Below are positions 21,225-55,540 of a stretch of DNA of 64,000 bases, piece after piece. How positions within the stretch are numbered: the first letter of the stretch is position 1; each line of letters opens with the position of its first letter. Origin of the DNA: Vermamoeba vermiformis. Taxonomy: Eukaryota. A model generated the notes under the pieces. The model made no database searches, was not told the origin of the DNA, and worked only from the letters and a program-made list of their open reading frames with translations. The position numbers and the translations under genes are program-made. The DNA lies in contig JBEWZL010000215.1 of assembly GCA_045837725.1 (NCBI GenBank), positions 62,001 through 126,000 on the forward strand, read 5' to 3'.

Positions 21225-22352
21225 CTAATTCTTCTTGTGCACGAATTCGAGCAATGATTGAGGTCGCGAGTGCGCTGCAGAGCTGTCGCAGTGGAAGTGA
21301 GCTGCAAACAATTAATTCACTGAACGGACTCCCTGTTGCAATCACTTACTAGCATCGCAAGCACCAGTGCACGACGAAGGCAAGTCAAAGACATGCGAGT
21401 CAGGCTTCTGCACCAGGACGTCGATCCACTGCATGTCGGTGCCCCAACCTCGCTCAGCCACGGGCACTGAAAGAGCAGCGTTAACACAGTGCCGAGCGAT
21501 ATCTGAGTGTCTTACACTTGTGCTTGTAGCCTTGGTAGTACACGTGCGCACCTTCAGCTTCAAAGTTCCACAGCGTGCTCAGGACATTGGTGAGCGGGTA
21601 CACATCGCGCTGTGACACGTGTCAATGGGAGTGTTGTGTCGCGGCATCAGATGGAGTACTTACACCGGCATATGTAGCATTGAGCTTGACGAGCCAATTG
21701 GGCTGTGTGATCGGAATGCCAGTCCAGCACAAGCAACACTGACCCGCGCTGGGGATGTTGAAGTAGATCTGTTCACGCGGTTAGTCGTGCAGTATTGCAG
21801 CTATTAGCATGGCACGTACGTTGTTGTTCCTAAAAATAGCGCTGCAATTGACACCTTTGGGCAACTTCTCGCACTGAATGTCATTGTCTTGTCTGTGAAT
21901 GTTACTTAGAAACTTCCGTAACTGCCAGGCCAGATCTGACTCACCTCAACATTTGGGCCGAGGCATCATAGTACCACGCTCCTGTATTGAGTAGTGCACC
22001 GGAATTGCTATCGACATAATTCCAAGTAGCGCTCCAGTGGTGAGGCCAGTGAGGCGGATGCACCTTAATAACAGGTCAATATGATAGTCATGCATTTGAT
22101 ATATTAAAACACATGCGTATATATGCTATTTTAGAGATAAGTGAAACCTTTTGTTATTAAATAAACGACAAAATTATTATCATTAAAAATAAAAGATACT
22201 TTTATAATCATAAAGCAGTATTCACATTAATAGCCATGATCGTATCAATATTGTCTCGGTTAGTTATATGCCGATACTTCTAATATAAACATCCAATTAC
22301 TTACAGCGATTGCAGAAGCAACGAAAATAGCGAAGATTACAAGAGCCTTCAT
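21225..22352 (-). CDS. Small secreted ependymin-related (EPDR/LolA-fold-like) protein; multi-exon
   Basis: Signal peptide MKALVIFAIFVASAIA|VHPPHWPHHWSATW...GAWYYDASAQMLRQD...IYFNIPSAGQCC...VFDLPSSC. The motif pattern resembles EPDR-like proteins; assigned by eye only. Confidence 0.6.
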
Positions 22353-22531
22353 ATGCATTACGGCAATTATTGTTATTATAATACAATGATAGTATTACAA
22401 TGAGGTATTGAATGTGAACTGATAGGAACAAAGTTGTTCACGAAACAAAACTGGTTTGTTGCAACAAAGAGAAATTAATTCGAACACAATTAGCCCGCTC
22501 GATTGTAATTAGTATGTGCTGTGTATACTAA

Positions 22532-24632
22532 ATGGCGGAGCATCAACAGGAGGCGCAGTTCTCGTGGAATCCAACATTGGATGGCATGCCAGAAGAACTT
22601 ATCATTTCTGTGTTCTATTATTGCCCTACAATAGAACTCATACGATTATCAATGACCAGTAAAAAATTCTTTCGACTCGTTAAATCGCCAAGGCTCGATC
22701 TGGTACGTTTTCTGAGGATCTGACGGAAAAATTGAAAAAAAATTATTTAATTATTACCTGTTTAGGCAAATGACCTATATGACCTAGCTGTGGATGAGAC
22801 AAATCGGCTAGACTCGGTTGCATCAATGGTAAAATTACCTAATTGAAGATCTGCAATTAATTTGTCATCGTTCAATTTGCTGATTGTAAATTCATAGAAA
22901 ATACTCAATACACTGCTGTATATATTTCCAAATTATTACAAAGGCTGGAGAAAGCGAAATGACTGTTGGCTACAATTAAATGAACCACTGCTAGCACTCG
23001 AGGATCTGATCAAAGCAAATAAGGTATGGTCGAATATTTGTTGATTAATCCTTTTATGTGCTCGATTTAGAGCATATTTAACTGATGCTGATACAGGTGT
23101 GCGACGATCCGGTGTACTCAAAGATGATCCAGTCGGAGTTTCATTCCTTGCAAAAAGAATACGACAAAGTGCTGCAGGTGATTGAAGAGGCTTATGCACT
23201 GGCCCCCGAGGACCCTGTAGTGTTGCATCATAGAGGTACGTCTAGTCTCATATATAAGCCTCGCAGTGCTCATCAAAGTGCAGCGTACGCGTACGGTCTC
23301 GTGGTCCCTGACGGCGAAGAACAAGCCAAAGCACACGAGAAAGAGATTGAACTCTACAAAGAGATCTTGGACATGCCGTACAAGGTACGAACAGAGCTCT
23401 AATTGCTGTGAGTATGCGGGACTAATGAGGACCACTAGCGCCAATTGATGATTCATAACAACTTGGCCTATTGTTATTTCCAAATCGAGTAAGTACTGCT
23501 AAGCTAATGACAAATGCTGCAGCTAAATTACCAAATATAGACAAGACGATCTCGCATTCGAACACTATGACAAGGCTATTGCACTCTGTCCGCACTTTGT
23601 CAAAGCGTACATTAACAAAGCCACCTTGCACTTTGAGCGCAGTGAATTCGAAGAGGTACACGTGTATACTTTGCGTGAATTTTATCGACTGACACGTGAG
23701 CCAGGTGTTGAAGGACTGCGACACAATACTGAGCATCAATCCGAACTTTTCTGAGGCGTACGGCTGGAAGGCGAGGTAACGTTCTAATATAACGACTATT
23801 ACCTAATTAGGCAATACCACCCCTAACTGCATCGATCAGTGCTCATTTGGGCTTAGATAATATCCCTGAAGCCCTCAAATTCATGACAGTTGCTCATGCG
23901 CGCACGATGCACGACCCATTCTTCGCGTTCTTGTACTACACACTCATGATCAAGCTCGGACACATTGAAAAAGTGCTCGCAGACATCGAACAGGAGAGGA
24001 AACTTTACATTGACGAGATGAACAAACTGATCGCACAGCTAGCAGAGCTCAAACAGCGACCAGATGACGACGGGTACAATCATTTGCGCATCATGGCGGT
24101 GCAGCGCAAAAAGAACACGTATCGCAAATTAGTGCGGATCTGTCACCAGAAGCGCGGTGAAGTGTTTCTGTTCGACGGACAGTTCGAAGAAGCACGTGCT
24201 GAATTGCAAGAACTCAAAGAGATCTACCGCGTCGGTGACTTGGACAATGGCAGTGGTGCTGAACCTTCAACGACCAAGCGACTGTTATTGATGGATCTGC
24301 TGCTGAACAAAGTGATTGGCGAGGACAGCAGTGTCATTCGTCCTGCAGCCATCGAGCTCAGTCGCAAGCTGCTACACATGTCCATGCCCCTCGATGCTGA
24401 CGCACAAGAGTTCTTGAACAATGTGCTCGCCAAATTGCCCCACGTGGACTTCAGCAAAGTGGAGCTCAAGTACCTCGTGCTCGCATTCGACTACAAGAGT
24501 CGCTACATTGATCCGTTCTTCCCGACAGAGTTCACCTATGCCACTGAAGACATACACTACTTCAACACGTTTTGGGAGCCCTGGCCCGCGTCAAATACAC
24601 TGCAAGAGCTCATGTACAGCTATCGCTACTAG
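22532..24632 (+). CDS. F-box + TPR-repeat protein; multi-exon
   Basis: LDGMPEELIISVFYYCPTIELIRLSMTSKKF (F-box). TPR-like segments EEAYALAPEDPVVLHHR, YDKAIALCPHFVKAYINKA, DCDTILSINPNFSEAYGWKA. Confidence 0.8.
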
Positions 24633-24676
24633 TCGTCATTAAATCACTGGTTTGGACCATTCTGATCACAGAGGTA

Positions 24677-25623
24677 TTAATGCAGCAGTTTATTAAGGAC
24701 TGTTATGCGCCGCTCTAGTCGATCGAGCAATGCTTTGCAGTCGTCTATTGCAGCACTCTTCAGCTTGACTTTGTCGTTGTTCACCTTCTGCGTGATTCGT
24801 GGTCAGTAATTGTTTGTGCGATGAATGGTACTTACTGCCGTCAGCTGGCTCTTGTATAACTGATCTGCGGTCTCATTGCACTCACGCAGCAGATCTGCAA
24901 GGCGTCAGCGAAGTAAATTCCAATCTATTACTCACCTGCACTAATCGCACTGTCCGATGTTGTAGTGCTGATCATCTGTTGCACTGCTGTTGGATGCCAG
25001 CCATAGTTCGAGGCATTGGGCTGATGACTGGCCGTGTTAGTTCCGTAAGTGTGACGAGTACATCTTACGCATTCTCTCGCGCCTGCTGCATCCGTTCTTT
25101 AATTTGCTCCATTTTTCGTTGAAGTTTTCGCACTGAAGCATCGCTGCTCTTTGCTTTGTTAGCGAAAAATTTATACTGGATTTCTCGAATCTGTTTTCTT
25201 CTTGTGTGGTGGGATACACTCGCCTTTAGGCGCTCTCTCAATCTAACAAATAGTGTTAACTAGGTTAATGAGCGAGTGCGTACCTTAACAGATAAATGCG
25301 GCGCCAAGAAAGAGTGGTCAAAGTTAGATCGTATTCCACGCCTTCAATGTCAAGCCACTTATTATTGTCATTAATAATGCTAATATTAAGCTCGCGTAAC
25401 ATCAAGCTCCGCCACACGATATTAGACGTTATAATGAGCCCTTGCCATAGTTTGCAAACAGATGCGCAATGACATAGCACGACTGCTCCATCAACGCGAG
25501 AAAATATTTCTATAATAATCTGCAATATAATTAGCACTGGAATTTCCTACTACTTGTTGTTTGCACTGATCGCAGTAAAGGAAATGTTCGAGTCGTACTT
25601 GCCTCCTCCGGCAATGAATTCAT
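24677..25623 (-). CDS. F-box protein with coiled-coil C-terminus; first intron probably GC-AG
   Basis: MNSLPEE|IIIEIFSRVDGAVVLCHCASVCKLWQGLIITSNIVWR. Downstream exons splice in frame to TAA at 24677. Confidence 0.75.
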
Positions 25624-25813
25624 CTTACTGACGAGGTACGCAGCTGTATGACATATCACAGGAGACTAAACAAGTGAACCAGTCAAATCTTTGCGGTGAC
25701 AATCAGTGATTTTTTTGTGGCCGTTTTTTTGGTTGTGTCGCATGAATTAAAAAACCGAATTGCAATTTGATTAATACTCTTTATATCTCTTATATACCAC
25801 ATCAGACAGACCA

Positions 25814-28800
25814 ATGACGAATCTCCTGCGGCACAAAGTCTCTAAGAAAAAGAGAAGATTTATGCAAGATGGCTTTGACTTGGATCTTAGCTGTATCCTT
25901 TATGATTAGATTGCATGATTTCAATTGTGACTTTATTTAAATACTTTAACAATAAGATTCTTCCTTAATTCTACTTTCAAAAAGATATTACCGAACGCAT
26001 CATCGCGATGGGTTTTCCTGCTGACAAAGTAGAAGGCTTGTATAGAAATCCTATTAAACAGGTCAAGAAGTAAGCAATAAATAGCAGAATATACTTGCTA
26101 TTAAGTGAATATTTAACGGCAGAACGTATTCAATTTACTAACTAATTCCAGATTTTACGAGCAAAAGCACGCTGAGCACTACAAGTTGTATAATTTGTAA
26201 GCAAATACTTATGAGCGATTTATAAAGCGATCCATAATGCTTAATTTCATTATTAGATGTGCTGAAAGAACCTACGATCCGAAAAAATTCCATGGGCGAG
26301 GTAATTATTAATATCCAACTTAATATACTATCGAATTAATGCTATTACGCAATACACATAACAATCTAATAAACATTCAATCAGTATCACACTACCCTTT
26401 TGAAGATCACAACGCACCGCCAGTGGATTTGATTGTTCGATGCTGCAAAGACATTGTAAGTGCATCGTAATTACGCGACAAAATAGGGCATTTAAAGGAA
26501 GATTTTGTCCTGATCAGGACCTCTTTACATGATTGACATGCACAACGCTAAATTAATTGATAATCTTGTTCTCATGCATTGCATTAACTCCGCAACAATA
26601 TGTTCGATTTAGCTCAGTTAACACGCGCAGCGGAGATTAGATTTAAATTAATAATAGCAATGTTTTTTTACAACTGCCTCTCATACTCGCAACTGACGCA
26701 CATTCATCGCTTGTAGGAGGACTGGCTCGCAGCAGACACCGAGAACATTGTCGGCATCAACTGCAAGGCTGGCAAGGGCCGCACAGGACTGATCATCTGC
26801 TGCTACTTGTTGCATTCCAAAGAGTGCAAGACCACCGACGAGGCTCTCACTTACTACGGTCACAAGCGCACACACGACGGCAAGGTACGACCGTTATTGC
26901 CTTATTTGGCAAGTCCTCGCTAACGTCACTGCACTAGGGTGTCACCATTGCCTCGCAACAGCGTTACATTCGATACTACGAGAAGATTTTGCAGCTCGGA
27001 GGAATTCCACCCATTCGCGCTCTTTATTTGAACAAATTGCGCGTGCACACTTTGCCCAACTTCCCTAACGGTACAACTGATTGAGTGCCAGTCATGGCTG
27101 ACGGTTACTGACGCAATTTATTTAGACCCCTATTTGACTGTGGAGATGAAGGGCCACATTGTCTTCAAGACCGCGCCAGTGGTGAGTTCTTTATCACCAG
27201 AGGGGTCGTAGAATTAAAGTCTAATCATCCACTAATGCAGAAAGTACCCGGGTCCAAGTCAGGCGAGGCTTACTTTGACATTGACTGCAACAACACCCCC
27301 GTGTTTGGTGACGTTAAGATTCAACTCAGCTGCGCCGCTGGCAACAAAACTGTAAGTCATTTGACACGTGTCACTCGACGACCTTGCTAACACTTCCACT
27401 AGCAAAACTTGTGCCACTACTGGTTCAACACTGGCTTTGTCGATGAAACAAACAAAGTCACGCTGCACAAGGGTGAGATTGACGTTGCCAACAAGGACAA
27501 GAAGTGCGTGCGCTTCAAGAGCGAGTTCGCGCTGGAGATGTTCTTCGACGAAATTGAAGGTGAACACAAGGGCAAAGTGCCTCAAGTGGTGATCACTGAA
27601 GAGGACAATCCCAAGTCTCCGAGCAAGAAGCGCAGACGAATTGTGTCTGTTGTGCTCAGCGACAACACTGTAGACCCACCAAAGGAAGTGTTAGTTATTG
27701 ACAAGACCAAGAAGAACACCGCCAAGAACAATACCAACAACAATAACAACAGCGAGTCTGAACAGCCGACTGAGACCGAGACCAAGCCCAGCGAGAACGG
27801 CCACGACGAGAAAGGTACTGAGACCAACGGTGAAAAGCCCAAGGAAAAGAAGGATAAGGACGGTACGTGACCTTGTAATATAGTCCATGACTATGCCAAT
27901 TCTTATTATGATTTTAGGACGCAATCGAGGTCGTTCGTTCTATCACTACAAAGAGTACAGTGACGAGGGCAAGCACGCCAAGGACGAAGACGTCTCATCC
28001 ACCACTTCTGAAGAGTTCCAAGAGTACTTCGAGTCCTTTGAAGAGAGCAACAGCACTGAACTTGTCGTGCAAAGCAACACCAACGCCAATGCACGCAAAG
28101 ACAGCGCCACAAACTTGAAGGAGTCAGGCAAGGGCGCCAAGAACAGCCCCAAGCCTTCAAAGCGAGCCAGCAAAGACGATGACAGCACTGAGGGCAAGAC
28201 TAAGAGTCCGCGCACCAAGAGCAAGACTGACATTCGTGTGAGCGACAGTCCGCGCAAGAAAGACGATGAGACTGAAAAGAAGCCCGCTGAAGGAGCTGAG
28301 CATAAGGACAAGAAAGATAAGAAAGACAAAAAGGACAAGAAGACTGACAAGCCCGCCGAACCTGTTGCCGAGAAGAAGGACGAGCCCAAGACCTTGCATG
28401 TCAACGAGGGTGACAAGTCTGCCAAGCGCAAGGGCAGCAAGAAAGAGCTGAAGAAAGACGAAAAGAAAGACGAAAAGAAAGACGATAAGGACGTCAAAGC
28501 TGAAGCTCACGATGAAGGCAAGAAGGACGAGCCAGCTGAACACCCCGCCGAGAACAAGGACGTGAAGAAAGTCAAGGGCGAGTCCACTCCCAAGGGCAGT
28601 CCTAAGCCCGAGAAGAAGACCAAGGAGGACAAGAAAGCCGAAAAAGAGAAGAAGAAACAAGACGAGAAGGACGAGAAAGAAAAGAAGAAGCACGAAGAAG
28701 AGGAACGCAAAGCTGCTGAACTGAAGAAAAAACAAGACGAGAAGGACGAGAAAGAGAAGAAAAAATTAGAAGAGAAGGAAGAGAAGGAGAAGAAGAAGCA

Positions 28801-29161
28801 CGACGACAAGAAGAGCAAGAAGAAAGACGACAAAGAAGACAAGCCCGCTGAAGACAAGGACGACGAGAAAGAGAAGAAGAAGCACGACGAGAAAGAAGAA
28901 GTCAGCAGTCCCAAGTCCGAAAAGAAGGTCAAAGAGAACGGTCCTGAGAGCAAGAAGACTGCCAAAGACAAGGAAAATGGCACCAAAGACAAGCCTGCCA
29001 AAGAGAAAGAGAATGGTACGGCAGAGAAGGAGAAAGAGAAGAAGAAGCACGACGAGAAAGAAGAGGTCAGCAGTCCCAAGGCTGATAAGAAAAAAGACAA
29101 AAAAGACAAAGCTAACGGCACTGCTGCTGAGACCAAAGAGGCTGCCGTGACCACTGATTAA
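25814..29161 (+). CDS. PTEN: PTEN-family phosphatase + C2 domain with a very long Lys/Glu/Asp-rich C-terminal tail; multi-exon
   Basis: VSKKKRRFMQDGFDLDLS|YITERIIAMGFP, YPFEDHNAPP, P-loop INCKAGKGRTG, GVTIASQQRY, C2-type HYWFNTGF...LHKGEIDVANKDK. Confidence 0.93.
25893..25984 (+). other. U12-type (minor spliceosome) GT-AG intron, PTEN intron 1
   Basis: 5' site GTATCCTTT. Branch site TTCCTTAAT at 25961-25969, about 15 nt before the AG. Removal restores DLDLSYITERIIAMGFP. Confidence 0.88.
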
Positions 29162-29424
29162 GTCCAGTCTTCTACCGCCCCTCATGTGTTATTACTACCC
29201 CCATAGTGTTTTGATTTATTTATTATTCTGTTTTTATTAACTTTAGCGTTAAAATGACTAATTTTGCGCGAGTTCTGGATCTCATCACACTCGAGACTTG
29301 TATTAATATTGATTAATAAAGTCATTTTAAGCACCTACGTCATACTTGTGTCTGTCATGACTTGTTTAGCCATTCAATTTCGCGCGTCATTCATTTACAT
29401 TCGAAATCGAACAATGAAAGAGAC

Positions 29425-32400
29425 ATGGAAAAATTGCTAGCTTGCCCAATTTGCCAAGAGCCATTTAGACGAGCTGTAGAAGTCAATTGTTGTAACAAAT
29501 GTTATTGCTTTGAGGTAAATGAATGTGGATCTTGCTTAATAATAAAATCAAACCGAAAAATTCAATTAATTTGATTATTTCCTTGTTATTTTTCAAATCA
29601 TTATTGTGATATTATACGTGCTCGATAAATTTAATAATTATTTGTTAAATTGATAACAGTGCATCGCTCAATGGCTGGACGATCCATCGAGTCCGCACAA
29701 CAATTGTCCCAGCTGTCGTGCGCCCCTGCGACGAGGTGATTGGAAAGAAAACAAACCACTGCAAACTCTCGTTGATGATTTGCCGACTACTTGCTGCTAC
29801 GCTGGTATGTTACCCGCAATTATCGCACTTGCTTAATTTGGTGTCAGAATTCGGCTGCGAAGCACTGCTGACACGTGGCATTGCACGTGAGCACGAAGAC
29901 AAGTGCGGCTATCAACGAGTCACGTGTCCATATGGCCCTGATCTCTGCGACAAGGTGCTAAAAATAGAACTTGATGCACACGTGCTCGACTGTCCTCATC
30001 GTCACGTGCCTTGTTCGCGAGGCTGTGGTGTCACATTGCCACGCAGTGCCATGGAGGTAAGTACCGCATTGAAGGATTTGCATCAATTGTAACTTGATTT
30101 AATTGCCTAATTTGGTAGCAACATCTGCAATCTGAATGCGACTTGTTGGAAGTCACGTGCCCGACTTGTCAGTGCGCACTGCTGAAAAAAGAATTGCGCG
30201 CACATTGCTGCCCCCACGTGCCAATCGCTTGTCCGTTCAGTGAATGGGGCTGCTCGAATGAGGCACGTGACTAGTTGAGTGAATGCTGCAGCTAACATCT
30301 ATTCGTAGCTCTTGCCAGTTGAAATGACAGAACACGTGTCGACAGCTGTCACCGATCATTTGACACTCGCACGTGACACTATTGCCAAGATTAACCGCAC
30401 TCTGGAGCTGTGTTTGACACGTATTGACACGCTCGAAAAGGAAAATGTCATTTTAAAGCAACGTCTGGCTGAACTCGAAATGACACGTGTCAATGCACCA
30501 CAAGTGCCAGAGCCATCCATTACCAAATCAGGAAATGCAGCTCCCAAAGTTGTTGATGAAATTGCAATTGAAAAAGAGAAAATTCGCCAATCAAAGAGCC
30601 CAGAAGTGGACCTTGCGAAGAACAACAACAATCAAAATGTCAAAATGACATCTGTCAACAAGACACCTGCCCTCGAGGAGGATGAGTCGATTGAGACCGG
30701 AATCAAAGTACGTTCCTACTATCTGTTTGGCGCGCTGGCAACTGACTGACAATGACCAGATCTTGATGCATCTCCCGTCCGAGATGCAGACCAAATATAG
30801 CAAGTTGATTGGCAGACCACTGGCCATCGTCGAGAATCTGCTGATAGACGAGAAGATTGACTACGCGGGCAAGCTGATTGAAGTGCTCGGACATCCAAAG
30901 GTCAGTGTTGGACACCTGTCATATTTACTCTATTGACACCTAGTCAGAGCGAGGAATTACTGCATTTGTACATCAAAAAAGCACTCACAGTCGACTCCGA
31001 AAGTACGCACTGACTTATTCGTTCATGAACTAATCAATTCACGACCAGCCCAAACCGAAGCACGTGTCACTTTGACAGGCGACTATCAAACTGATTTGTT
31101 GCTGCGGACCAACTTCCGATACCCTCGCGCACCTGGTACGTAATTGTCGTTGATTGCCTTCCCTTTTGACACGTGTCACATTCAGATGTCAAACTCGCCA
31201 AAGCAATGCTCGACCTGCTGACTGACCGCCACAAAGCAGCGTATTATTGTCTGGAGCTGTATCAGCTCTATCAATCGGACTACACGTACTCGCCCAATGT
31301 CAATCACGTGACTGCCATCAAGTACGCCTATGACATGTGCCATAGTACGCTAACAACATGTTTGACAGGCTGATGGATGCGTTGCGTGAGCTGTTGATGT
31401 ACGCCAAGCTGCAGTTCGTGAAGAGTGCCGATTCAGTGAACAGTGGCACCGCTGAACTTTGCGACAGTTTTGTCAGTCACGTGGATCTGTTCGTGTCAAT
31501 CGTGCGCGCTCAGGCTCACGTGACAGTGCAGCTCGCTGATTTCTCTGAGAGCCACAAAGCCAGGTCAGTAATTAGTGGCAAGGTTATTTATGGCTAAAAA
31601 TAGAATTGCTATTCTTAGAAAACTGCGCGACAAATTGATTGTCGAAGAGAAGTTCGAAGTGGCACGTGATGTCGCTGTGATCTGCGGTGTGGAGGTCGAT
31701 GTCGTCTGGGTAGCTTGGTGAGTGACACGTGTCATACTCTGACTCGTATTAACATGTCATACAGGGGCTTGCATCGCTTGCGTGCCGGCAAATATTCCGC
31801 TGCACGTGATGCATTCGCACTGTGTTTGGTGCCAGCTGATTCCTCGACCAAAAAAGGCAATTCATTCGCACTGTCCAAGAAATCTCCCGCAGCCAACAAG
31901 TCCTCCATTGACACTGCGCGTGTTGTGGATGGCATTGTGGCTATTTTAGACACCAGTCAACACGTGTCACTGCCTGCCTCGCATGATGACGTGTCATTGG
32001 ACACTTCGCTCGGTGACCTGCGCAGGTAGGGCACAAGTCATTCATGAATTTAATTTTAACCGATGACACAGTTCTGCGCCAGACAGTGCTAAAAATAGAT
32101 CCATGAACTCCAGCAAAGACTCGCAGCTGCGGCAACAAGAGTGTATTTTCTATTTAGAGCGCTACGGCAACACGCACAGTCTGCTGAGCTATTATTTGAA
32201 GCACAAATTACTCGAAAAAGCCTGTCGTCACGTGATTGATCGCGCACTGTCGCACGGCACATTTGTCGAGTACATTGTCGATCATTGTCTGCGCATGTCA
32301 CTGCTGCCAGAACTCAAACAGATCTTGAAGAAGATTGGTACGGAATTAATTTCCTAATTTGGTTATTTAGTCACTGACTCGTTTGCAGACCCACATATGG

Positions 32401-33364
32401 AAGTCACCAAGCCCTATTTACTCGCCGCGTGCAAATATTTCAATCACAAAAAGGCCTTCAAAACACTGGTCACATTTCAAGTGTTCATGAAAGACTATCT
32501 GCGCGCAGGACTGACGTGCATCAAGATCTTCATGGAGACACTGGATCCGCAGTACAAACTCAAGTGCCTCGAAGTTGCGAAGGGCTATTTTGAAGAGGGC
32601 CTCAAACTGCGCCAACAACTGGCACTGAAAGGTGTCAACGTGTCAACTGAAGTGTCAAACGAGGTGTTGCAAGAGAGTGACGTCAACAAGTACCTCAATC
32701 GCATTGATTTGCAGCTCGAATTGTTGCAATTCTTGATTCCGCGCTACAAAGATATTTCCATCGAGGGCTTCGATCAGTTTACCTTATTTGGCAATCAACA
32801 GCAACGACAAGCCCTGGCAGAATACGTCATATTGCACGATGTAGATCTCGGCCTCGATGTGATTGATGACGCCAAACTCGATCGGATGAGCGTGCTGACG
32901 ACAGCTATTGCCAATTTAGGCAAGTCACTGATCACTGCCATCACTAGCAAAGCAGAGCCCGCGGCAGACATGAAGCGCATTGATGACTTTTTGACTGCCC
33001 TCAAGGTACGTACTGCGGTTTTGATGAAGATCACTGTTTGACACGTGTCATTCAGGAGCCGCTGTCCCCCGTCCAATCAGACACACTGGTGCTCGAACTG
33101 ATTCAACTGCTCGCCCAACACGTGCCCGAAGAACGCTACTGCGACAAATTGATTGCGCGCATCACTGAGCCACGACTGCAAGTGCGCGCACATCTCTGCT
33201 GCGGCAAGTTGAAAGCAGCGTACTTGTTGGCGGTCAAACTCGCTGATCTCGAACTCATTCGCGCACTGCTCGCTGAGGCTGAGCGCGTGCAGTCGAAGAA
33301 CGTGGTGGCACTGTGCCTCAAGTACTTGGAGACGCGGAACAACAACAGCTCTGAGGGCAAGTGA
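29425..33364 (+). CDS. RING + TRAF-type Zn fingers + coiled coil fused to the C-terminal part of spastizin (ZFYVE26/SPG15), without FYVE; multi-exon
   Basis: RING CPICQEPF...C..C..CIAQWL..CPSCR. TRAF Zn fingers HEDKCGYQRVTCPY, HVLDCPHRHVPC. Spastizin-like ILMHLPSEMQTKYSKLIGRPLAIVENLL, QECIFYLERYG, YLLAACKYFNHKK...FQVFMKDYLRAGLTCIKIF, RAHLCCGKLKAAYLLAVK. Confidence 0.8.
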
Positions 33365-33450
33365 GCGGATCTAGCTTAATGTAAATAGCAATGCACTTGT
33401 ACTATATAAAAAATGGCTTTATATTAGAGGGGTATCATATCAACACTAAT

Positions 33451-34486
<1,036 letters not shown>

Positions 34487-34734
34487 TCTGTTTTAATTAA
34501 GCGCGAATTAGTGTTTTTGCGTGATATGAAGGATAAATAACAATGCGTACTTGTTGTTGATGTGGGTGCAAGCACTACAACTGAATTCACTGTTCGCCGA
34601 TCCAAAAATCGTTTTTTTTATCAATTTTAGCTTTATCGAACAACCCCTAGAAAATTCCAGTCAGTACTGCTGATTCACTTTGAGCAACAAAGGCATCAAG
34701 TACATAGCAGTATTATAATCACAGCAGCTCAACG

Positions 34735-35918
34735 ATGTCACACGTAATGATAATCGGTTAGATCCCAAAACAATAGTATTAACGGGCCGTGTAATTAATA
34801 GGACGAGAAAGACCACGAAAGAAACCGCGAGTTGTTATACAAAATTCTCGTAGTCGGTGATATTGGTGTTGGCAAGACTAGGTAAGCTCTCATCAGTCAC
34901 TTCTGCTTCAACAATTATTAAAGTCGCAATATTGTCCCTTTGCAATTCATTGGTGCTTAATTTGGTTATTAACGCACTGTTAAATTAAATGAATGCATAC
35001 AAATTATGTTTGCATTTTTACGCGACGCCAACAAGCAGATCGGATCTTTGTCTAACGTTCTGGCAGTATTATCAAGCGTTATGTCCACGGAATATTTTCA
35101 ATGCATTACAAATCGACAGTAAGTTATAATATGGCTGATTGTCCATTCAATTTGATTCATTCTTCCCAACCAGATCGGCGTTGATTTTGCATTGAAAGTA
35201 CTGCAGTGGGACTCGCATACTACAGTGCGCTTGCAACTCTGGGATATTGCTGGTAAGTCATATATACTGCTGGACTGTAGAGTGGAGTTTAAGACAAAGA
35301 TACGCGAACGAATAATTTCTTGCCGCGGATCTTATTTGAATCAATCAATTTCGATAATAATATGATTAGTGCTATAATGAGCACTACAACAGCATTCATT
35401 ACGCTGATACTAATGCTGCGTGCTCCAGGTCAAGAACGCTTTGGCAACATGACGCGTGTCTACTACAAAGAAGCGGTCGGCGCGTTTGTCGTGTTTGACG
35501 TCACGCGGTAAGTCTAATAATAGCGCTGTCTAAATAAGGCAATGCTAACTGCGCGCCACTCGACAGCTTGTCCACATTTGAAGCAGTACAAAAGTGGAAG
35601 AACGACATCGACAGCAAGGTGCAGCTGCCCAAGAGCGACAAGCCCATTCCCGTCGTGCTGCTGGCCAACAAAGTCGACCTCGCCAAGGACGAGTTCGCGC
35701 AGATCAGAGAACAGATGGACAAGTTCTGCAAGGACCACGGCTTTGTGGGCTGGTTCGAGACCTCGGCCAAGGACAACACGGGCATCGACAACGCGGCGCA
35801 GTTGTTGGTGAAGAGCATTCTCGAGCACGATGTGAGCAGCGATGACGTCAAGAGCGAGGGCATCAGACTCGCGGAGGACGAGCCACAGCCCACCAACGAC
35901 AAGGAGTGCCGCTGCTAG
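34735..35918 (+). CDS. RAB32: Rab32/38-family small GTPase; multi-exon
   Basis: LYKILVVGDIGVGKTS, YKSTIGVDFALK, LWDIAGQERFGNMTRVYYKEA (the WDIAG variant is diagnostic), ANKVD, WFETSAK, C-terminal CRC. Confidence 0.93.
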
Positions 35919-36244
35919 GCACAGGGGCAGTGCGAGGGGCGTATATATATCGGACATATAGCGCGAGGGTTGTTGTATAGTGCGTGGTCAGTGTTGGGGA
36001 TCTGACTGCGCAGATGTGAGTGGATAATTAAAATAAACTCGTATTCTTATGTACACTCGCTAGATGAACGAGCATATAGATACTGAAATAGCACCTCTGT
36101 TTGAATCACGTGTTGGATCTGGCGGAGATTGCGTGGTTGCAAAAATTCAATTTCAAAAACAGAATTTGATCCAAACTACACAAACAACGACTGTTGATTT
36201 GAAGGACTTTATTCATACTATAGTTGTTGTAGATATTGACAATA

Positions 36245-38351
36245 ATGAGTAATCCTGACATGTAAGCCGAATCTAGCCAACGAATTTTTCCGTTTTAATA
36301 TTTCAATTAATAATTTCATTATTATAACTTTAAATTGATATCAACTATTAGCACTCAAATTAAATTTGCAAAATTATGATGGGTGATTTTTAAAAATCAA
36401 AATTAAAACACAAATACATTCCAGAATCTTAATATTAACTGTTGCTAGTGATGAGCTTGATTCAATATTGCAGTCGATTGGTGTATCGCGTAAGTGCGGA
36501 ATTTCGGTGCGATATTGCGCTGAAAGTTAACTAATTGAAATTTACTAACTCGGATCCTCGTTACAACAGCGGCAGATCTGACGCCCAATCCACAGCCCAC
36601 CCCTACACCTGCAGTAGAGCCTATTAAAGTCACAATCAGTGCTGGTCCTGGCCCCGCACTCTCCTCAGGTCCTGGTGCCATGCGCTCTTCAGGACCGGGT
36701 GCGATGTCTTCCGGGCCTGGATTCAGTTCAGGACCTGGCAATGCAGTCATGTCTGCAGGCCCTGGCATGAGCTACTCGTCAGGCCCTGGTATGATGTCTT
36801 CAGGTCCTGGTGTCACGTACTCATCAGGCCCTGGCATGATGTCGTCAGGCCCCGGCAATGCAGTCATGTCGTCAGGTCCAGGCGTCATTTCTTCAGGCCC
36901 CGGTGCTATGCGCTCATCGGGCCCTGGTGCGATGTCTTCAGGCCCTGGTGCCATGCGCTCCTCAGGCCCTGGTAAGTCACGTGCGCTACTGTAGAGGCGC
37001 GGGGACTGATGTAGAGTGCAGGGGCTGCAGTGCTCTCCGCAGGACCAGGAGCAGCGTGGGCCCGACAGAAGGCCGAAGAAGAGCTGCAGCCAGCCCCGCC
37101 CATGCCCACCACCACGCCTGATGGACGCGCGATTGTGCATCAAGGTCCACCGTGTGCGCAGTGCGGTGAAATGATCATCGGCCAAGTGGTCACTGGTACG
37201 TGTTCATATGACATACTAGTGCCCTCGCTGCTGTGCTGTTACTAATCGCAGTGCAGCGCTCGGCAAGACCTATCACCCCGATCACTTTGTGTGCTATCAC
37301 TGCTCGCAGCCATTCATCGAGTGAGTACATTACACGTCCTATATATATATCTCCTATTCGATGGTGTCTGACACGACGACAGCGGCAAGTATCTGATCAA
37401 CGACAATCAGCCCTATTGCGCCAAAGACTTTCACGACTTGTTCAGTCCGCGCTGCAAGACGTGCGGCGACATCATCGTGGACAAGTGCATCAATGCGGGG
37501 GGCCAGTACTTCCATCCCAATCACTTCTGTTGCTGCACGTGCGGCACCAATCTCAAGGGCCTCAAGTACAAAATTGACGAAGAGAGCAAAGACATCTACT
37601 GCTTGACCTGCATGTCCTCGCGCGTCAAGAAGATCGATCCTGTCGCGCGTGTCTGCAGCATTTGCAAGCGACCAATCGTGGGCGAGTACATCAATCTGCG
37701 CGGACAGTTCATGCACCCCGAACACATGCGCTGCGAAGAGTGCGGCTGCGAGCTGACAGGCGGCAACTGTCACGAGTTTGAAGGTGCGCTGTACTGTCTC
37801 GAGCACTATCAACAGCTCTTGCGCAAGACGTGCGCGCACTGCAGCAAGCCTATTTTGGGCCGTTCAGTCACTGCGCTGGGTCGTGTGTGGCACCCAGAAC
37901 ACTTCATGTGCGAGGTGTGCAAAGAACCATTTATGGGCAGCAGTTACTATGAGCGCGATGGCAAGGCCTATTGTGACGTGCACTTCAACTCGCTGTTCGG
38001 CCACATGTGCGACAAGTGCGGCGAGCCTATTTTCAAGGTCAGTAGCATGAAACCCTACATTAACTGTGTGTGATGCTCATCTTGCTGCAGAACGGCATTG
38101 ATTTCTTGGACAAGCACTATCACCCCGAACACTTTATGTGCATGGTCTGCGACAAGTTGTTGACGCGCAGCAATCTGACAGAGTGGGAGAGCAAGCCCAT
38201 GTGTTCGGACTGCTATTTGAAGCTGCCAGGTGAAGTCCGAAAGAAGTTTGAAACGCGCAAGAAACGCGAGCGTGACGCGCAGAAAAAGCGTGAAAAAGAC
38301 GCGGAGAAAGCGAAGAAAGAGAGCTTGAAACAGAGCAAAGCCGCGAAATAA
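36245..38351 (+). CDS. Five-LIM-domain PINCH/LIM2-like protein with an N-terminal LD motif and S(S/A)GPG repeats; multi-exon
   Basis: MSNPD|IDELDSILQSI, 16 S(S/A)GPG units, five LIM domains, PINCH-like end KPMCSDCYLKLPGEVRKK. Confidence 0.85.
36638..37050 (+). repeat. Coding tandem repeat of 16 x S(S/A)GPG units with variable 1-4 aa spacers, interrupted by one intron
   Basis: Recurrent tcaggccctgg / tcaggtcctgg units, visible in ORF 36680-36994 and its flanks. Confidence 0.9.
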
Positions 38352-38541
38352 CAGCAGTGAAGTGTAGCAGTAGCCAATAAAACTTGTAATTACTAGGTGC
38401 TTGTCTCGAGCCTCACAGAATTCAGTTGGTTGCACCTCACATCAGTTTCACGAACGAACGACATCGTTTTCAAGCAGGATCTGGACTTGACCGCCTGCGT
38501 GCATTTATATTTACAAGATTTCGCGACTAAGGAAGTATATA

Positions 38542-41500
38542 TTACATGAAATCATCGAGCAAATTGACCACGCGCGGTGGCACTAATTCGCTGTTGTTGT
38601 TAGGCGCATTGTCCGCACTGACCGCGAGACTTGTGGATGTCGCAGTGTGTGTCACGGCCATGGGTGCACTGCTCTCACGCACGGCACTCGTTGTGTGGCT
38701 GTCAGTGTGCTCAACCGATGCAGAAGCGTGGTCGTGATTAAGAGTGTTAGTGTTGTTGCTGGTGTCAGAGTTGAGTTGCCGAATGAACTCGACAATGTAG
38801 CTCGGGGCCTTCAAGCTCTCGATGGCACTGAACAGCTCGCTCACCACCACGTGCTCGCCAATCTCGCGCAGTGTGTGCATCACCTCTTCGAACTCACCCT
38901 GCTTCAACACCTTCTTGTTCAGCTGCAGCAGGGCCAGGGCCGCGCGGAACAAGAACACCTCGCCCTCGATCAGATAGCAGTCCCACAGTCGCGAGGCAGC
39001 ATCGAAGGGCAGACTGCGCGAGAAGAGTGTCATGAACCAGTCCAGCAGATAGCTCTCCGCACTCACATTCAGCGCTGCAAAGTGACTGTGCACCTCGCGC
39101 AGTGTGCGCTCGAACAGCAGATCGTAAATCTTCAAGTGCTTCAAGATCTGCGCGGCGATGAGTGACATTGCCTAATTTGGACATGTGTCGCACGTACCTC
39201 ATTGACATTCATGGAGAACAGGGCCGTGAAGTAGTGGCTGTTCAGAAGATTTGCAAAGCTTACAAAGGCCTCGTAGGGCTCCATGTAGATGAGCAACATG
39301 CCTGCCAAGTACGACATGCCCTGAACCTGCAAATGACACGTGTCAATGGGTGGACTGCATCAATCATCTAGCACGTGACTTACATAGCCTAATTCGGGGT
39401 TGTATAGCGCATACAATTGCAACAATTCGTTCAGCTGCGCGTAGAACGGACCTTCTTCCTTAAATAGACTCGTCGCTGGGAATGTCCTGCTTACCATATT
39501 AGGCAATTCATTGGTGGTTCATGAATGCTACGTACCGTGGTACATCGATCTCGATCAACTTGGACGGAGATTGTCCGAGCCCTGGTGAATTGTTGAGGTG
39601 TTTGCGGTTATTTATGTCGATCAATCGGAGATATTCCGCGCGAGATAGTTGCAAAGTATTGCCGATTGCTGTCGCCCAGACCTGTCCGCGCACCGTCGGG
39701 GGTATACCGGCACGCCACATCAGCTTGGTGCTGCGCTGTCGTTTCCTTTTATGGCAATGGTTAGTAAAGCCCACACCGACATGCCACGCACATACTTCTT
39801 TTCCCAATTAGGCAATATCTGTTCGAGCCAGACACGTGACGTGTGGTCCAGCTGCGATTCAATGCGTGCCACACGGTCCACTTCGCGCGAGTGCTGCCGT
39901 TCCAGCCGTTGCGTGCGGTTGTTGTCCACGGTGCGCTGCCGCTTTTTTTGGTCGAAGAAGATGTTGGCTAAAAATAGCCCACTGCCAGACATTAGTGCAC
40001 TTGCCAAATATAGACACGGAGTAACATACACGGACTGCAGGGCCGAGGGTTGCTTTTTGAGTGGTGTGCCGTGCACTGAGCTGTTGACCTTTTTTTGACC
40101 GCACTGGCGTCGTGGGTAGCGAACTGTGACGCGTTTGTCCTAATAAGGAAGGTGTGTCGGAGGTCTCCGATTGCCAGTCATTGGATTCGTGTCCCACGCT
40201 GGCACTGTCCTCTTCGCCGCTGCTGTCAAATGCTGTCTCATCGAGATCGATCTTCTCTTTCAGCGACTCCAATTGCTGTGACTAAATTTAGTATGTGCCA
40301 GCACGTGACAGCACAGCACGTACCCGATCAAATGCCGTGAGATGTACGGGCTTGTAACTGCTGATCGAGGTGATGTAGCCCTGCATCGCGTCGTCCCACG
40401 CGTCTGAAGATTCCGCTGAAATTTCATCGTCATCGGAGACATCCTCCGTGCCTGTCAACACATCGTCACTCATGAATTTGTTGAAATCTTCCAAATATGG
40501 TGCGACTCCTTCATTCTCCAAGTCTGTTTTTGGCAGTGACTCATTGACACCTGTCACCTCTCTGACACGTGTCGTGACACATGTCTGCCACCAGCCACAC
40601 GCGACAGTCTCCACGTGCAGGTCAGCGAGAGCAGTGACAGGTGCTGGCAAAAGAATTCGCTGCTTGTCACTGACACTTGACACGTCACCGAGTCCGAGCT
40701 GGCCGTAGTCTGACAGCCCCCACGTGTACAGCTCCCCTCGTGCTGTCACGCACGCGCTGTGAAATCCACCGCACGCCATGTGTGTCACGTGCTGACCAAC
40801 CAGGGCTGCAACGAGGCGCGGCTGCAGTTCACTGATTGGCTCGCCGTGGCCCAACTGTCCGTGCTCGCCCCAGCCCCACGTGTACCTGTCACGTGATCAG
40901 CACTGACACGTGTCACTCGAGGGAGATACTTACACATTGCCAAATTCGTCAATGGCACTGGAGTGGTAGTAGCCTGCGGAAATACTTTGCACGGGAATTC
41001 TTTCTTGCGCAAAGTACGGTATCTAAATTAGGAAATGTGAGTGCGGTGCTCGCAAGACCAATCGAGCATACCAAATGCGGAGTGCTGCGATCGAGTTCAT
41101 CGCCGAGTCCGAGCTTGCCATCGCTGCCATTGCCCCACGCGTACACCTCGCCCGCACTGGTGAGACACATGGAGTGATTCCAGCCACACGTCACGTGCGT
41201 CACTGTCACGTGCTGCAGTGCACTGATCAGCACTGGACGGAACTGATTGCCCGATTTGGACTTGTTCGGAGATTTGTTCGGAGATTTGCGCGGTGAGAGT
41301 GGCTGCACAGCGGAGTTGACAGGTGTCAAAGTGTCATCCGTGTCATCGAGGCCCAAGCGACCATTGGCATCGCGACCCCAACTGAACACTTTGCCATCTT
41401 TGGTCAGTGCCAGCACGTGCCCGCCACCGCTAACAACCTGAATCACGTGATGTCCGTGGAGTGCAGTGACTAATTTGGGTGAGAACTGAAATTTCAGTTT

Positions 41501-42151
41501 GCTGTCGCCGAGTCCGAGCTGGCCGTCGTGATTGCCCCCGAAAGAATACACGGCACCGTCCTCTGCGCGGAGTCAGTCAGCGACTCGAGTGCAGTGCTGG
41601 TACGTACCGCGCAGCAGCAGACTGTGGTCACTACCTGCAGCAGCGAGCACGAATCGACGCGCGTGCAGTGCTTTGATGAGCACGCACTGTTTGAGCAGAT
41701 GTGGCTCGTCGCGGTCACTCGCTTCACCTGTGCCCAGCTAAGGGGGCGTGAGACATGTGTGCTCGTGGTATAATTACGTACCTGTCCTGACCAATTCCAT
41801 CCCCAGCTGTACACATCACCAGAACCTGAAGCAAGTATTGGCGATCAGATCGGGCATTGAATTAATTAGATGCACAAAAGTTAAAATTAAAACTAACACG
41901 ATTATCGATAATTTAAACAGTATTATTATAACAATCAATACTCCAATCGATGCCGTACTTGTGACAGCCAAAGAGTGACGGCCCCCACACGCTATTTGCG
42001 CGAGTAGTTTGTTGTTGAAGGCAGCAATCACCGTGGGCAAATTGTGATCGAATGCGTCTTTGAGACCGAGCTGGCCATCACTGCCGCGACCCCAGATGAA
42101 CGTCTGGTACTTGGGTGTTTTGCGCTTCACTCTGGCGGTGTTGTCAGCCAT
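38542..42151 (-). CDS. RCC1-repeat + TBC Rab-GAP protein; multi-exon, needs a 1-nt frameshift at ~39943-40096
   Basis: RCC1 repeats (WGRGSDGQLGL, ACGGRHSLA, WGNGSDGKLGLG). TBC fingers IEIDVPR|TF and GY|VQGMSYLAGMLL, and LDWFMTLFSRSLPFDAASRLWD. Confidence 0.88.
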
Positions 42152-42417
42152 GAGAGATACTTAATGAAGCAAGTGTGTAATACATAAACAGCAACAGTGG
42201 TGGTGCATTATAAATACAAAGGAATAATGAAGATTTTGGGCGAAAGAGTGTAAAAATAGCTCCTTTCAAAAATAATCATCAAATTGCGCCACGTGCAATC
42301 AAATGTACCTCGCAAAAACGACCTTTATTTGACATCGACTAGTACTTGAGTCATGCTGTACTACAAGCTTTTTTAATTTGTGTTTTTTTTATTATTATAT
42401 TATAAGCCAAGCGGATC

Positions 42418-43504
42418 TTATTTAGCAGCGGTTTGTTGGCTCTTGACGCGGAGTTCACGTTCCTCAAGAATAGAAAGACGAACACCCTTGCGCTTGGGAA
42501 CAGTGACGAGGGCCTTGGTGCCTTCACCCAACAAGAAAATGTTTGACATCAAAGTGGAAAATTGGTGACCAGCAGCGTCCTTCAAGTGAATGTAATCTTG
42601 AGCACCGTCGTGCACGTCACGCGAAGTGATGACACCAATGCGACCCAAGTTGTGACCACCAGTGACCATAGCCAAGTGACCAATTTCGAAGGGGACGTGG
42701 GCAACAATCTTGCCAGTGGCGAGATCAACCTTGACGGTATCGTTGGCCTTGATGTTGGGGTGAGGGTATCTGATGGTGCGACCGTCGTGAGTGGTGAGGT
42801 GAGGGACGGCCTTGGGACCAACGTAAACAGACTTGACGCGGCAGAGCTTGAACTGCAGAGGATCACGATCGGTTAATTCAATAATTCCTATTTTCATCAA
42901 TAAGCATTATTAATACTTACGCCAGCTTCATTGGCGTCGATTCTGTGGAGAATGAAACGACCCTTAGTATCGTACAAGAGTCTGAAGTTTTCCTTGGTCT
43001 TCTCGATGCTAACAACATCTGCACAATTTGTGGGTTAACTTCTGTGATAATTTTATAATGCGCCATATTTATCTTACCCATGAAACCAGCAGGATAGTTG
43101 GGATCGCTTCGAACTCTGCCATCGACCTTGACCAATTTTTGCATCAAAATATAAGTGACCTCGCGCTTAGTAAGAGCATACTTCAATCTGTTTCTCAATA
43201 AAATGATGAGAGGAATGCACTCTCTAAGCTTGTGGGGACCAGCGCTGGGTCTGGGAGCCTAAATAATAATTATAATAATTAATTATTATTCCCTACAAAA
43301 TATTCATTCGAAGCGTTATTGTGCAATCGTACGTTAATGTTAAACAAATAAATTATTATACTTACAAAAACTCCGGAGAGTTTGTCAAGCATCCAGTGCT
43401 TGGGAGCATTCAATCTCTTCAAGTGCTTCTTTGGGCCGCGAGGCTAAAATAACGATATTAAATACTGGTTACTCGAATTATTGATGTATAATTGGTAATA
43501 CCAT
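42418..43504 (-). CDS. RPS4: 40S ribosomal protein S4 (eS4); first coding exon is the ATG only
   Basis: [55 protein letters not shown]. Confidence 0.97.
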
Positions 43505-53696: not shown

Positions 53697-54494
53697 TGTG
53701 TACTATTTACAGATGCAGAGACCTAAACTATTTACAAGGGATCACCCAGATGAGAACTACTGTACAAATAAATAAACAAGAAGAGGTGCGCGGTACTTGA
53801 AACGATTGATCCTCTCCTCTGTTATGTTGTTACTTCGAGTTTGTTTTTGATTAGTTTTGAGATTTCCTCAACTTTTTCAGTTTGACGTCGGATCCAAAAA
53901 CCGAAGAAAATTTGGCTTGCAATTTACCGAAGGGACACACCGTGTGGAATTTGGGTGCTACTTCGAGATTTGCGCGTAGTAGGCTGGGTTGTAGAGTTAA
54001 CTAGTTGAAGGACAGTTAAACAAATGACATCCCACAGACGAAGAATATTTTACTTGTTCCAAATTCTAGTTCATTTGACAGACAAGCATTATGTGCATCC
54101 TACTATCGCTAGGGACGACTTTATGTCGCCTGGTCAATATTTTAGGGGCTTGGACTCCCTCAGTCTCATTTCAAAAAGATTTTTATCTGGAGCTTTACTC
54201 ACAAGGGCTGTATTGCATGGAGTGCACAAACGAGAACTACCCATGCCTTTGTACGCAATGTCTGGAGGACGTCCCCTCTGTCAAAAAATTGGTATGTCTG
54301 CTGACCAACACAACTATGCAGTGAAGGCCTCATGGTAGCAGTTGGTGTTCTACAGTGACCACCAAAGTTGAACTCCTGCGTGGTGGGGAGATAGCATTGA
54401 TGCAAGATCCTGACAATGTTAATGAGCTTATCCCCACCAAGGCTACTTTGAACAGGGGAAAATATCAAGTGCTGCTAGGCTAGATACAGAATGC

Positions 54495-55225: not shown

Positions 55226-55320
55226 GGTTGGGGGGTTTTTTCATAATCTTTGTTTCTTTTTGCTAGTACGTTCATAATGCAGGAATAGGGTTACTAGTAT
55301 ATTATGACACCCAAAGGAAA

Positions 55321-55449: not shown

Positions 55450-55540
55450 AAAGGAAAATATTCCCTGCAGCGGACCACAACTGTGGGATTCTTAGCGAAG
55501 TTGTGCTAGCAGGTGTGTTTTATTTTCCTGGTTTTCCTTC

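Follow-up and report, generated by a model that had tools for sequence, protein, structure and literature searches.

What reads a palindromic word that recurs, letter for letter, inside the short introns of unrelated genes? The question is raised by a 64,000-nucleotide (nt) stretch of DNA from Vermamoeba vermiformis (contig JBEWZL010000215.1, positions 62,001 to 126,000 of the forward strand; hereafter the window, numbered from its first letter), in which a scan found eight exact copies of TGACACGTGTCA, a perfect 12-bp dyad (the 12-mer). The 12-mer is enriched in the window, is restricted to introns and gene bodies, and keeps its position in orthologous introns of a relative, and its parts are in excess in exons at the nucleotide level. 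It is a selected signal inside genes, for which a paired DNA-binding protein and RNA self-pairing are the candidate readers. Our best reading, to which we give a probability of about 0.4, is a putative gene-body, dyad-symmetric site for a dimeric DNA-binding protein of the E-box/G-box or three-amino-acid-loop-extension (TALE) homeodomain type. All counts refer to the 64-kb window and to one orthologous locus from relatives.

The 12-mer, its host introns and its exonic parts

An earlier note, made from the letters of the window, had claimed eight exact copies, and all eight were recovered at the claimed positions. We compared this count with Markov expectations built from the window's own k-mers, which gave 0.0037 copies at order 0, 0.022 at order 3, 0.27 at order 5, 0.75 at order 6, and 3.9 at order 7. 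The motif is thus far above chance at orders 0 to 6 (8 copies against 0.004 to 0.75), as had been stated. Composition in CACGTG plus TGAC, which the note had named as a possible explanation, fails to explain the eight copies at order 5 and is insufficient, since the count is accounted for only when the motif's own 8-mers enter the model. With up to one mismatch allowed there were 14 matches against 0.34 expected, a number reached by 0 of 100 dinucleotide shuffles. The one-mismatch copies start at 89, 7293, 29869, 40545, 40563, and 41317; the note had correctly placed the first and the last three of these and had missed 7293 and 29869. Chance or base composition as the source of the 12-mer was rejected on these counts.

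The nesting of word counts identifies the 12-mer as the unit: CACGTG occurs 76 times, ACACGTGT 14 times, GACACGTGTC 10 times, and the full 12-mer 8 times, and the 14-mer made by extending it with T and A has no copy in the window. CACGTG is the most overrepresented hexamer of the window (152 on both strands against 43.7 under an order-2 model; z of 16.4), and its commonest flank by far is TCA, present at 25 of 152 half-sites. The outer arms recur in their own layout as well. The pattern TGACANNTGTCA, inverted TGACA arms with a 2-bp gap, has 11 matches in the window against 0.14 expected, with CG at the center of eight, TC, CC, and GG at the center of one each, and GC at none. The three matches of the TGACA-NN-TGTCA layout with centers other than CG are TGACAGGTGTCA, TGACACCTGTCA, and TGACATCTGTCA. 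Three copies of the 12-mer carry an ATTGACA flank. No Rfam family reached its gathering score in the window.

GT..AG introns of 47 to 57 nt, with open frames on both sides, hold seven of the eight copies, and the eighth is coding. The copies are listed below, together with a decayed and a variant copy; the words themselves are given without strand, and the strand shown is that of the host intron.

21613..21624: 12-mer in intron 21610-21663 (-); ends 3 nt before the 3' AG, its TTGAC arm being the only branch-like site near the 3' end
27362..27373: 12-mer in intron 27352-27402 (+) of the PTEN-like gene; 10 nt past the 5' splice site, with a separate CTAAC branch site downstream
30481..30492: coding 12-mer, read as E-M-T-R-V-N, in the context LAELEMTRVNAPQ; a relative keeps 10 of 12 bases and the 3' flank
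31167..31178: 12-mer in intron 31136-31185 (+) of the ZFYVE26-like gene; 7 nt before the 3' AG; unchanged in the matching intron of contigs L001 and L002
31723..31734: 12-mer in intron 31718-31764 (+); begins on the sixth base of the 5' splice site GTGAGT; all 12 letters unchanged in the orthologous intron
33039..33050: 12-mer in intron 33006-33055 (+), the last of the ZFYVE26-like gene; 5 nt before the 3' AG; identical in L001
39334..39345: 12-mer in intron 39327-39383 (-) of the RCC1/RabGAP-TBC gene; 7 nt before the 3' AG; the intron begins with GTAAGT followed by CACGTG
40904..40915: 12-mer in the middle of intron 40886-40933 (-), between two RCC1-repeat exons; the same intron holds a second CACGTG
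31334..31345: decayed copy in intron 31322-31368, with two mismatches; the relative is perfect at the same place
30910..30921: variant copy in intron 30901-30947, with a CACCTG center; the relative has a one-mismatch 12-mer

The seven motif introns were predicted from canonical splice sites and flanking open frames. Removal of intron 40886-40933 restores an RCC1 repeat, and cross-species alignment backs three of the introns by conserved exons and a diverged interior. The earlier assignment of seven copies to introns of about 50 nt and one to coding sequence is confirmed by the splice sites, the frames, the RCC1 repeat, and the alignment. RNA reads were available from a strain that is 95 to 99% identical to the window. 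Their depth was below 1 across the motif genes; introns elsewhere are confirmed by them (33826-33882 and 37321-37382 among others), whereas at that depth they show none of the seven splice joints and give no evidence of retention, skipping, or back-splicing. The 12-mer is present in 7 of 77 predicted short introns, about one in eleven, and supplies the commonest 8- or 9-mer among them.

The intronic copies are all perfect, with none at one mismatch, and their position varies. Four of them end 3, 5, 7, and 7 nt before the 3' AG, and TTGAC is there the sole branch-like word, with no other CTRAY; the note had placed this arm where a branch site is expected, and it is seen there in these four introns. 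The other three copies start 5, 10, or 18 nt after the first base of the intron, and a separate CTAAC, CTGAC, or CTGAT is present. A plain branch site would not account for the motif as a whole, as three copies sit away from the 3' end of their introns and conservation extends to the full 12 bases. A hairpin within single introns was not supported, either: all seven motif introns fold no better than their shuffled versions (z of +0.51 to -1.52).

To place the words relative to genes, we used gene models made by codon-scored exon chaining, which are rough and were hand-corrected for the TRAF exons. The observed-to-expected ratio (O/E) of CACGTG was taken against the base composition of each class.

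Introns (6.8 kb): 7 copies of the 12-mer; 13 CACGTG; CACGTG O/E of 10.8
Exons (33.9 kb): 1 copy of the 12-mer; 55 CACGTG; CACGTG O/E of 5.9
Other, non-genic or unannotated (23.2 kb): 0 copies of the 12-mer; 5 CACGTG; CACGTG O/E of 1.7

Were the seven noncoding copies scattered at random over introns plus other DNA, the chance of all seven falling in introns would be about (6.8/30)^7, or roughly 3e-5, and about 1e-3 if half of the third class is unannotated gene. The eight copies span no more than 19.3 of the 64 kb, and CACGTG counts per 4-kb bin peak at 28 to 32 kb (20) and at 40 to 44 kb (13). Two gene bodies account for the clusters.

29649..33363 (+): TRAF-zinc-finger/ZFYVE26-like gene body; the densest cluster, with four perfect 12-mers
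38545..41960 (-): RCC1/RabGAP-TBC gene body; the second cluster, with two perfect and three one-mismatch 12-mers

The ZFYVE26-like segment 30321-32023 holds 12 CACGTG (7.05 per kb), and the predicted model 38545-43168, which extends into the neighboring S4e gene, holds 17 (3.7 per kb). A gene at 51.4 to 52.6 kb has 4.9 per kb, and the PAK-like and RasGEF genes have none. The enrichment is confined to gene bodies, and to some genes in the window; it is neither uniform nor general.

Pfam families found in the window are PTEN_C2 (in the exon after motif intron 27352-27402), TPR_ZFYVE26 (in the exon after intron 33006-33055), RCC1, RabGAP-TBC, LIM, TRAF zinc finger, RasGEF with cNMP-binding and GRAM domains, a PAK-like kinase, and ribosomal protein S4e; an adenylate kinase and a Rab GTPase were read from translated open frames. 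The combination of RasGEF-cNMP-GRAM, PAK, LIM, and TRAF domains would suit an amoebozoan, and a protein-atlas match hints at Tubulinea. Among the host-gene names given earlier, PTEN, spastizin (TPR_ZFYVE26), and RCC1-TBC are backed by Pfam, and the EPDR-like name is not, there being no Pfam family in the two short exons of that gene. The adenylate kinase, Rab, and LIM genes, which lie between the clusters, are motif-poor and have an RNA depth of 3 to 40, compared to less than 1 for the motif genes. Every gene has a CpG observed-to-expected ratio of about 1. Among the 2-kb bins, 54001-56000 alone is low, at 0.45 against about 1 elsewhere.

We additionally examined the exonic words against a null in which synonymous codons were shuffled within each predicted coding sequence, leaving protein and codon usage unchanged. 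Coding CACGTG was found 47 times, compared to 19.4 after shuffling (z of 8.9), which ranks it first of 4,096 hexamers by excess, and it was raised in all three frames (25, 15, and 7 against 14.3, 2.7, and 2.5). The arms were raised as well, with 31 GTGTCA against 9.0, 21 TGACAC against 11.3, and 27 TGACAG against 9.3. Other E-boxes (CAGCTG, CATATG, CAGGTG, CACCTG, and CATGTG) showed no coding enrichment over the shuffle. By gene, exonic CACGTG numbered 10 against 2.6 in the ZFYVE26-like gene and 11 against 4.4 in the RCC1-TBC gene. On the coding sense strand CGTGTCA occurred 15 times and TGACACG 6 times, with 3.0 and 2.9 expected, a weak asymmetry. The exonic CACGTG cores were not concentrated at splice junctions (P of 0.13), and exonic cores as splice enhancers near junctions were rejected on that ground.

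Conservation of the 12-mer in relatives

A metagenome scan with a ZFYVE26-like exon returned three contigs, two of which (L001 and L002) have 85% protein identity to the window and one (L003) 43%. L001 and L002 are identical across their overlap. L001 holds four perfect 12-mers and 10 CACGTG in 3.5 kb, L002 holds three and 13 in 3.2 kb, and L003 has no CACGTG in 6.8 kb, where 1.7 were expected.

The copies at 31167, 31723, and 33039 have counterparts at the same places of the orthologous introns, with 36 of 36 bases identical. The interiors of 13 aligned introns are identical at 290 of 542 positions (53.5%), and exons at 79%. At a per-base identity of 0.535, the probability of 36 of 36 is about 1e-10, which excludes chance, argues against an inserted element, and indicates purifying selection. 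TGACACGTGTCA is probably a cis-element specific to this lineage. The earlier note had proposed to look for positional conservation in orthologous introns, and it was found.

The exonic cores are less fixed. CACGTG is conserved at 10 of 19 exonic sites, compared to 30.3% for all exonic hexamers, and the changes are mostly transitions. At the remaining 9 of the 19 sites the relative has lost or never had the core, and it has two exonic cores and one intronic core absent from the window. In addition, the relative's orthologue of intron 31564-31618 carries a one-mismatch 12-mer directly after a GC-type donor. This intron, at about 560 to 620 of L001, is apparently GC..AG with the donor GCAAGT, compared to GTCAGT in the window; the one-mismatch 12-mer begins on base six of that donor, just as the 12-mer of window intron 31718-31764 does. 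Another unusual donor was seen in intron 30267-30318, which begins GTGACT (GTGACC in L002) and where a conserved CACGTG straddles the boundary, GGCAC|GTGAC.

The more distant contig differs in structure. L003 4955-6814, which corresponds at 43% identity to window 31369-33363, is a single frame through the positions of introns 31564-31618, 31718-31764, 32338-32388, and 33006-33055. As L003 reads through these window introns, the two lineages differ sharply in intron density.

Readings of the element

In the reading that we favor, the element would be lodged in the bodies of a subset of genes, where a homodimeric factor would bind it as double-stranded DNA. Full-strength copies would occupy the 50-nt spliceosomal introns, presumably the sole unconstrained DNA within these genes, and weaker copies, consisting of the CACGTG core or of one arm plus the core, would be placed in exons where the protein permits. 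The candidate readers are a basic helix-loop-helix-zipper (bHLH-ZIP) or basic leucine zipper (bZIP) protein on the CACGTG core, or two TALE-type homeodomains on the inverted TGACA arms. The bound factor may act from within the host gene on its transcription or chromatin. With introns so short, the site would share bases with splicing signals; the left arm, (T)TGAC, would double as the branch site in four introns, and the first base of one motif would double as the last base of a 5' splice site. That the reader is a protein on DNA, and what its binding would do, is what we infer from the pattern of sites.

This reading draws on the separate coding enrichment of the core and of both arms, a picture of one strong consensus amid many weak sites. 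It draws also on the perfect identity of the compared intronic copies in the relative, on the restriction to certain genes, and on the TGACA-NN-TGTCA geometry shared with the TGIF1 complex. The motif is not simply a splice signal, since it occurs at either end of the intron or in its middle and since the exonic cores are not drawn to junctions. The many weak cores beside a strong consensus, the genes with a single copy, and the independence of position fit a DNA-bound protein. Several points weigh on the other side. The roughly 23 kb outside the gene models, non-genic or unannotated, contain no 12-mer and have CACGTG near background (O/E of 1.7), whereas classical transcription factor sites are expected to be commonest in promoters. 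Seven perfect intronic copies with none at one mismatch is stricter than is usual for protein sites, and the sense-strand counts of CGTGTCA and TGACACG (15 and 6) are a weak hint of dependence on strand, that is, on RNA. The gene models, moreover, are our own rough predictions.

A close rival, to which we give somewhat less weight, is that the word is instead read as RNA, as a pre-mRNA element any two copies of which, in the same or in separate transcripts, can form a 12-bp duplex. Such pairing would hide a branch site or 5' splice site, or tie introns together, and would thereby set intron retention, splicing order, skipping, or back-splicing. The restriction of motif and core to transcribed gene bodies (7, 1, and 0 copies of the 12-mer and CACGTG O/E of 10.8, 5.9, and 1.7 in introns, exons, and other DNA) would follow directly, and so would the all-or-none character of the seven intronic copies; in four introns the copy supplies the sole branch-like site toward the 3' end, and in another it overlaps a 5' splice site. 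The self-duplex of the 12-mer has an energy of -19.3 kcal/mol. The predicted minimum-energy fold of 31100-33100 pairs the copy at 31167 with that at 31723; the first stands 7 nt ahead of an acceptor and the second 5 nt past a later donor, a layout favoring loop-out of the exons between. The weak sense-strand bias of the exonic arms (15 against 6) and the RNA depth, below 1 in the motif genes and 3 to 40 in their motif-poor neighbors, also point this way. However, two host genes, the PTEN-like gene and the gene at 21.4 to 21.9 kb, have a single copy, and the PTEN-like gene has no pairing partner in cis, since it contains one 12-mer and no other CACGTG. Single introns fold unremarkably in 7 of 7 cases, the six-base exonic cores are too short for stable pairing and do not cluster near junctions, and a word common to many genes would find indiscriminate partners in trans. 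A bolder version, which we consider rather unlikely, would make the word an RNA "zipper" common to thousands of tiny introns in an amoeba-like lineage, or a "self" mark of host gene bodies. A 12-bp duplex between introns would then cover the branch site or 5' splice site, and an unwinding or duplex-binding factor would gate the splicing of a gene class, which here would comprise membrane-traffic and signaling genes with low RNA levels.

Two explanations leave the host genes without a function for the word. The 12-mer could be a signature like highly iterated palindrome 1 (HIP1), produced by a biased DNA process such as site-specific methylation with short-patch repair or biased gene conversion, and the perfect palindrome, the coding excess of core and arms beyond codon usage with the core in all three frames, the turnover of exonic cores at a density that stays high, and the lineage specificity (no CACGTG in the 6.8 kb of L003, weak given 1.7 expected) are what such a process would give. 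We nevertheless regard it as improbable. A bias at the DNA level should affect all DNA, whereas non-genic DNA is near background, several long genes have no CACGTG, and the eight copies are limited to 19 of 64 kb. The one-step neighbors of CACGTG are not strongly depleted (CATGTG/CACATG at 0.78 and CGCGTG/CACGCG at 2.09; only AACGTG/CACGTT is low, at 0.49), so that the pattern of a repair sink among them is weak, and the CpG ratio of about 1 in all genes lends little to a methylation-driven process, hints neither for nor against a base modification at the motif, and led us to reject gene classes formed by methylation or CpG decay. The methylation- or repair-driven sink proposed earlier thus found little in its favor, CATGTG/CACATG being only mildly low; the HIP1 analogy itself gains some substance from the coding enrichment of core and GTGTCA arm beyond codon usage. 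The 12-mer is absent from the roughly 23 kb of non-genic DNA and from 45 of the 64 kb. Still more improbable, by a wide measure, is a relic of a small mobile element, an introner or miniature inverted-repeat transposable element that created the introns and left the palindrome as the remnant of its inverted ends. The lineage is rich in introns, L003 lacks an intron at four window positions of which two are motif introns, and two pairs of copies (21613/39334 and 27362/40904) share five extra flanking bases; introners with inverted repeats are known in other protists, according to the available text of PMC7789003. However, among the 77 introns the hosts share only the 12-mer and splice signals, with no other common word of at least 8 bases except branch-site words; no target site duplication or direct repeat flanks the eight copies; and the motif stands at the start, middle, or end of its intron and also in an exon. 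Intron gain is not tied to the motif, since L003 lacks motif-bearing and motif-less introns alike. A relic would moreover decay like the rest of the intron, whereas identity is 36 of 36 against 53.5%. A single inserted element is excluded by the unrelated host introns, the missing direct repeats, and a motif that stays perfect while introns decay; the note's statement that this is not one inserted element is supported by those unrelated hosts. The note had listed a dimeric chromatin-protein site, a mutational sink, and a splicing element as possible mechanisms, which proves to be the right shortlist; the data rank the three without settling among them.

Other recurrent words and relation to known systems

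Several further features were seen in the window. AGCACTACAA has six copies, which lie 45 to 120 nt from GCGCAGATCTGCAAGG-type words built on the palindrome GCAGATCTGC; pairs occur at 2162-2301, 9806-9866, and 24889-24969, with further positions at 26175, 34571, and 35380, and these words may be core-promoter elements. AGATCT occurs 40 times in the window against 16 expected. CTAAAAATAG, which we take to have the form of a MEF2-type MADS-box site, occurs six times (21830, 29958, 31594, 32089, 39968, and 47886) against about 0.1 expected by a rough estimate; in two cases it makes up the branch site and 3' TAG of an intron, and L002 retains the coding copy at 29958. ATTGCCTAAT, usually followed by T/A-TGG, also occurs six times (1444, 23806, 30102, 39167, 39498, and 39807), four of them in predicted introns, and is a second recurrent intronic word. 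Its copy in intron 30057-30118 is largely kept in L002 (AATTACCTTATTTGG) despite a 12-nt deletion in the intron. The PTEN-like gene contains a Lys/Asp-rich coding repeat of GATAAG/AAGAAG units at 28301-28335 and 28770-28824, where RNA reads of the related strain break off with loose ends of similar repeat sequence, which suggests that the repeat length differs between strains. Lastly, 21 and 23 RNA reads match up to 39338 and 41335, in or beside motif copies, and continue into sequence absent from the window; these reads may come from another locus with motif-like words (GTGTCA repeats).

The element resembles several known systems, E-box/G-box sites, TALE sites, HIP1, and intronic complementary sequences among them, and differs from each in a defining respect. 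With bHLH-ZIP/bZIP sites it shares the CACGTG core, the dyad symmetry in all eight copies, flanks that set the specificity, and the mixture of few strong sites with many weak cores. Those sites are mostly in promoters, whereas 0 of 8 copies here are non-genic, 7 of 8 are intronic, and all 12 positions are invariant; the distribution is gene-specific, but four host genes are a number too small to delimit a regulon. In plants, GACACGTGTC is a promoter element of the G-box/abscisic acid-responsive type. The word occurs in plant papers on drought, abscisic acid, and carbon starvation and in constructs. As for the arms, the available text of PMC6158717 describes the TGIF1 homeodomain complex on ATTGACAGCTGTCAAT, in which two monomers bind inverted TGACA arms around two bases, a crystal structure solved with the Meis1 homeodomain on DNA as the search model. 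The palindromic TALE site TGACAGCTGTCA has, in the same text, the two inverted TGACA arms, two central bases, and 12-bp length of the element. However, the center in the window is CG in 8 of 11 matches and never GC, the center of the canonical site, and CACGTG is enriched also without the TGACA arms, which a pure arm reader does not explain.

Like HIP1 (GCGATCGC, of cyanobacteria), the element is a short perfect palindrome far above low-order expectation. HIP1 is present in coding DNA in all frames and is conserved at orthologous positions; for the element, the relative matches 3 of 3 intronic copies compared in full and the coding copy at 10 of 12 bases. It differs from HIP1 in having 12 bp rather than 8, in being eukaryotic, in its restriction to gene bodies in the window, and in the intronic location of its full copies. 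A eukaryotic counterpart of HIP1 was not found in the literature searched. Intronic complementary sequences, which underlie circular RNAs and mutually exclusive splicing, and plant intron-mediated enhancement are likewise noncoding and act only inside the transcribed region, and the pairing of an upstream with a downstream intron that is predicted here resembles that of exon-looping intron pairs. Exon-looping pairs are long, gene-specific complements, and enhancement motifs are nonpalindromic and near the 5' end of genes; the window, in contrast, has one shared 12-mer with copies reaching the last intron. Introners, as described for Amoebophrya, Micromonas, and Aureococcus in the available text of PMC7789003, also spread a repeated palindromic or inverted-repeat sequence over many introns of unrelated genes. 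They are, however, whole-intron repeats with inverted repeats at both ends and direct repeats at the borders, whereas the window has one internal 12-mer in unrelated canonical GT..AG introns with no border repeats. Neither this word nor any iterated palindrome carried in eukaryotic introns was described in the literature searched, where the exact 12-mer appeared only within primers or constructs of virology papers.

Short introns of protists are usually regarded as empty beyond their splice signals. Here, one exact 12-base word is present in 7 of 77 short introns and is preserved between species amid decaying surroundings, which offers a tangible and testable example of selection acting on words of DNA or RNA over whole gene bodies in a compact eukaryotic genome. 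An RNA zipper or self mark, if true, would be a functional, intron-borne eukaryotic counterpart of the highly iterated palindromes. Should the element recur throughout the genome, the HIP1 problem of cyanobacteria would have its first described analogue in eukaryotes.

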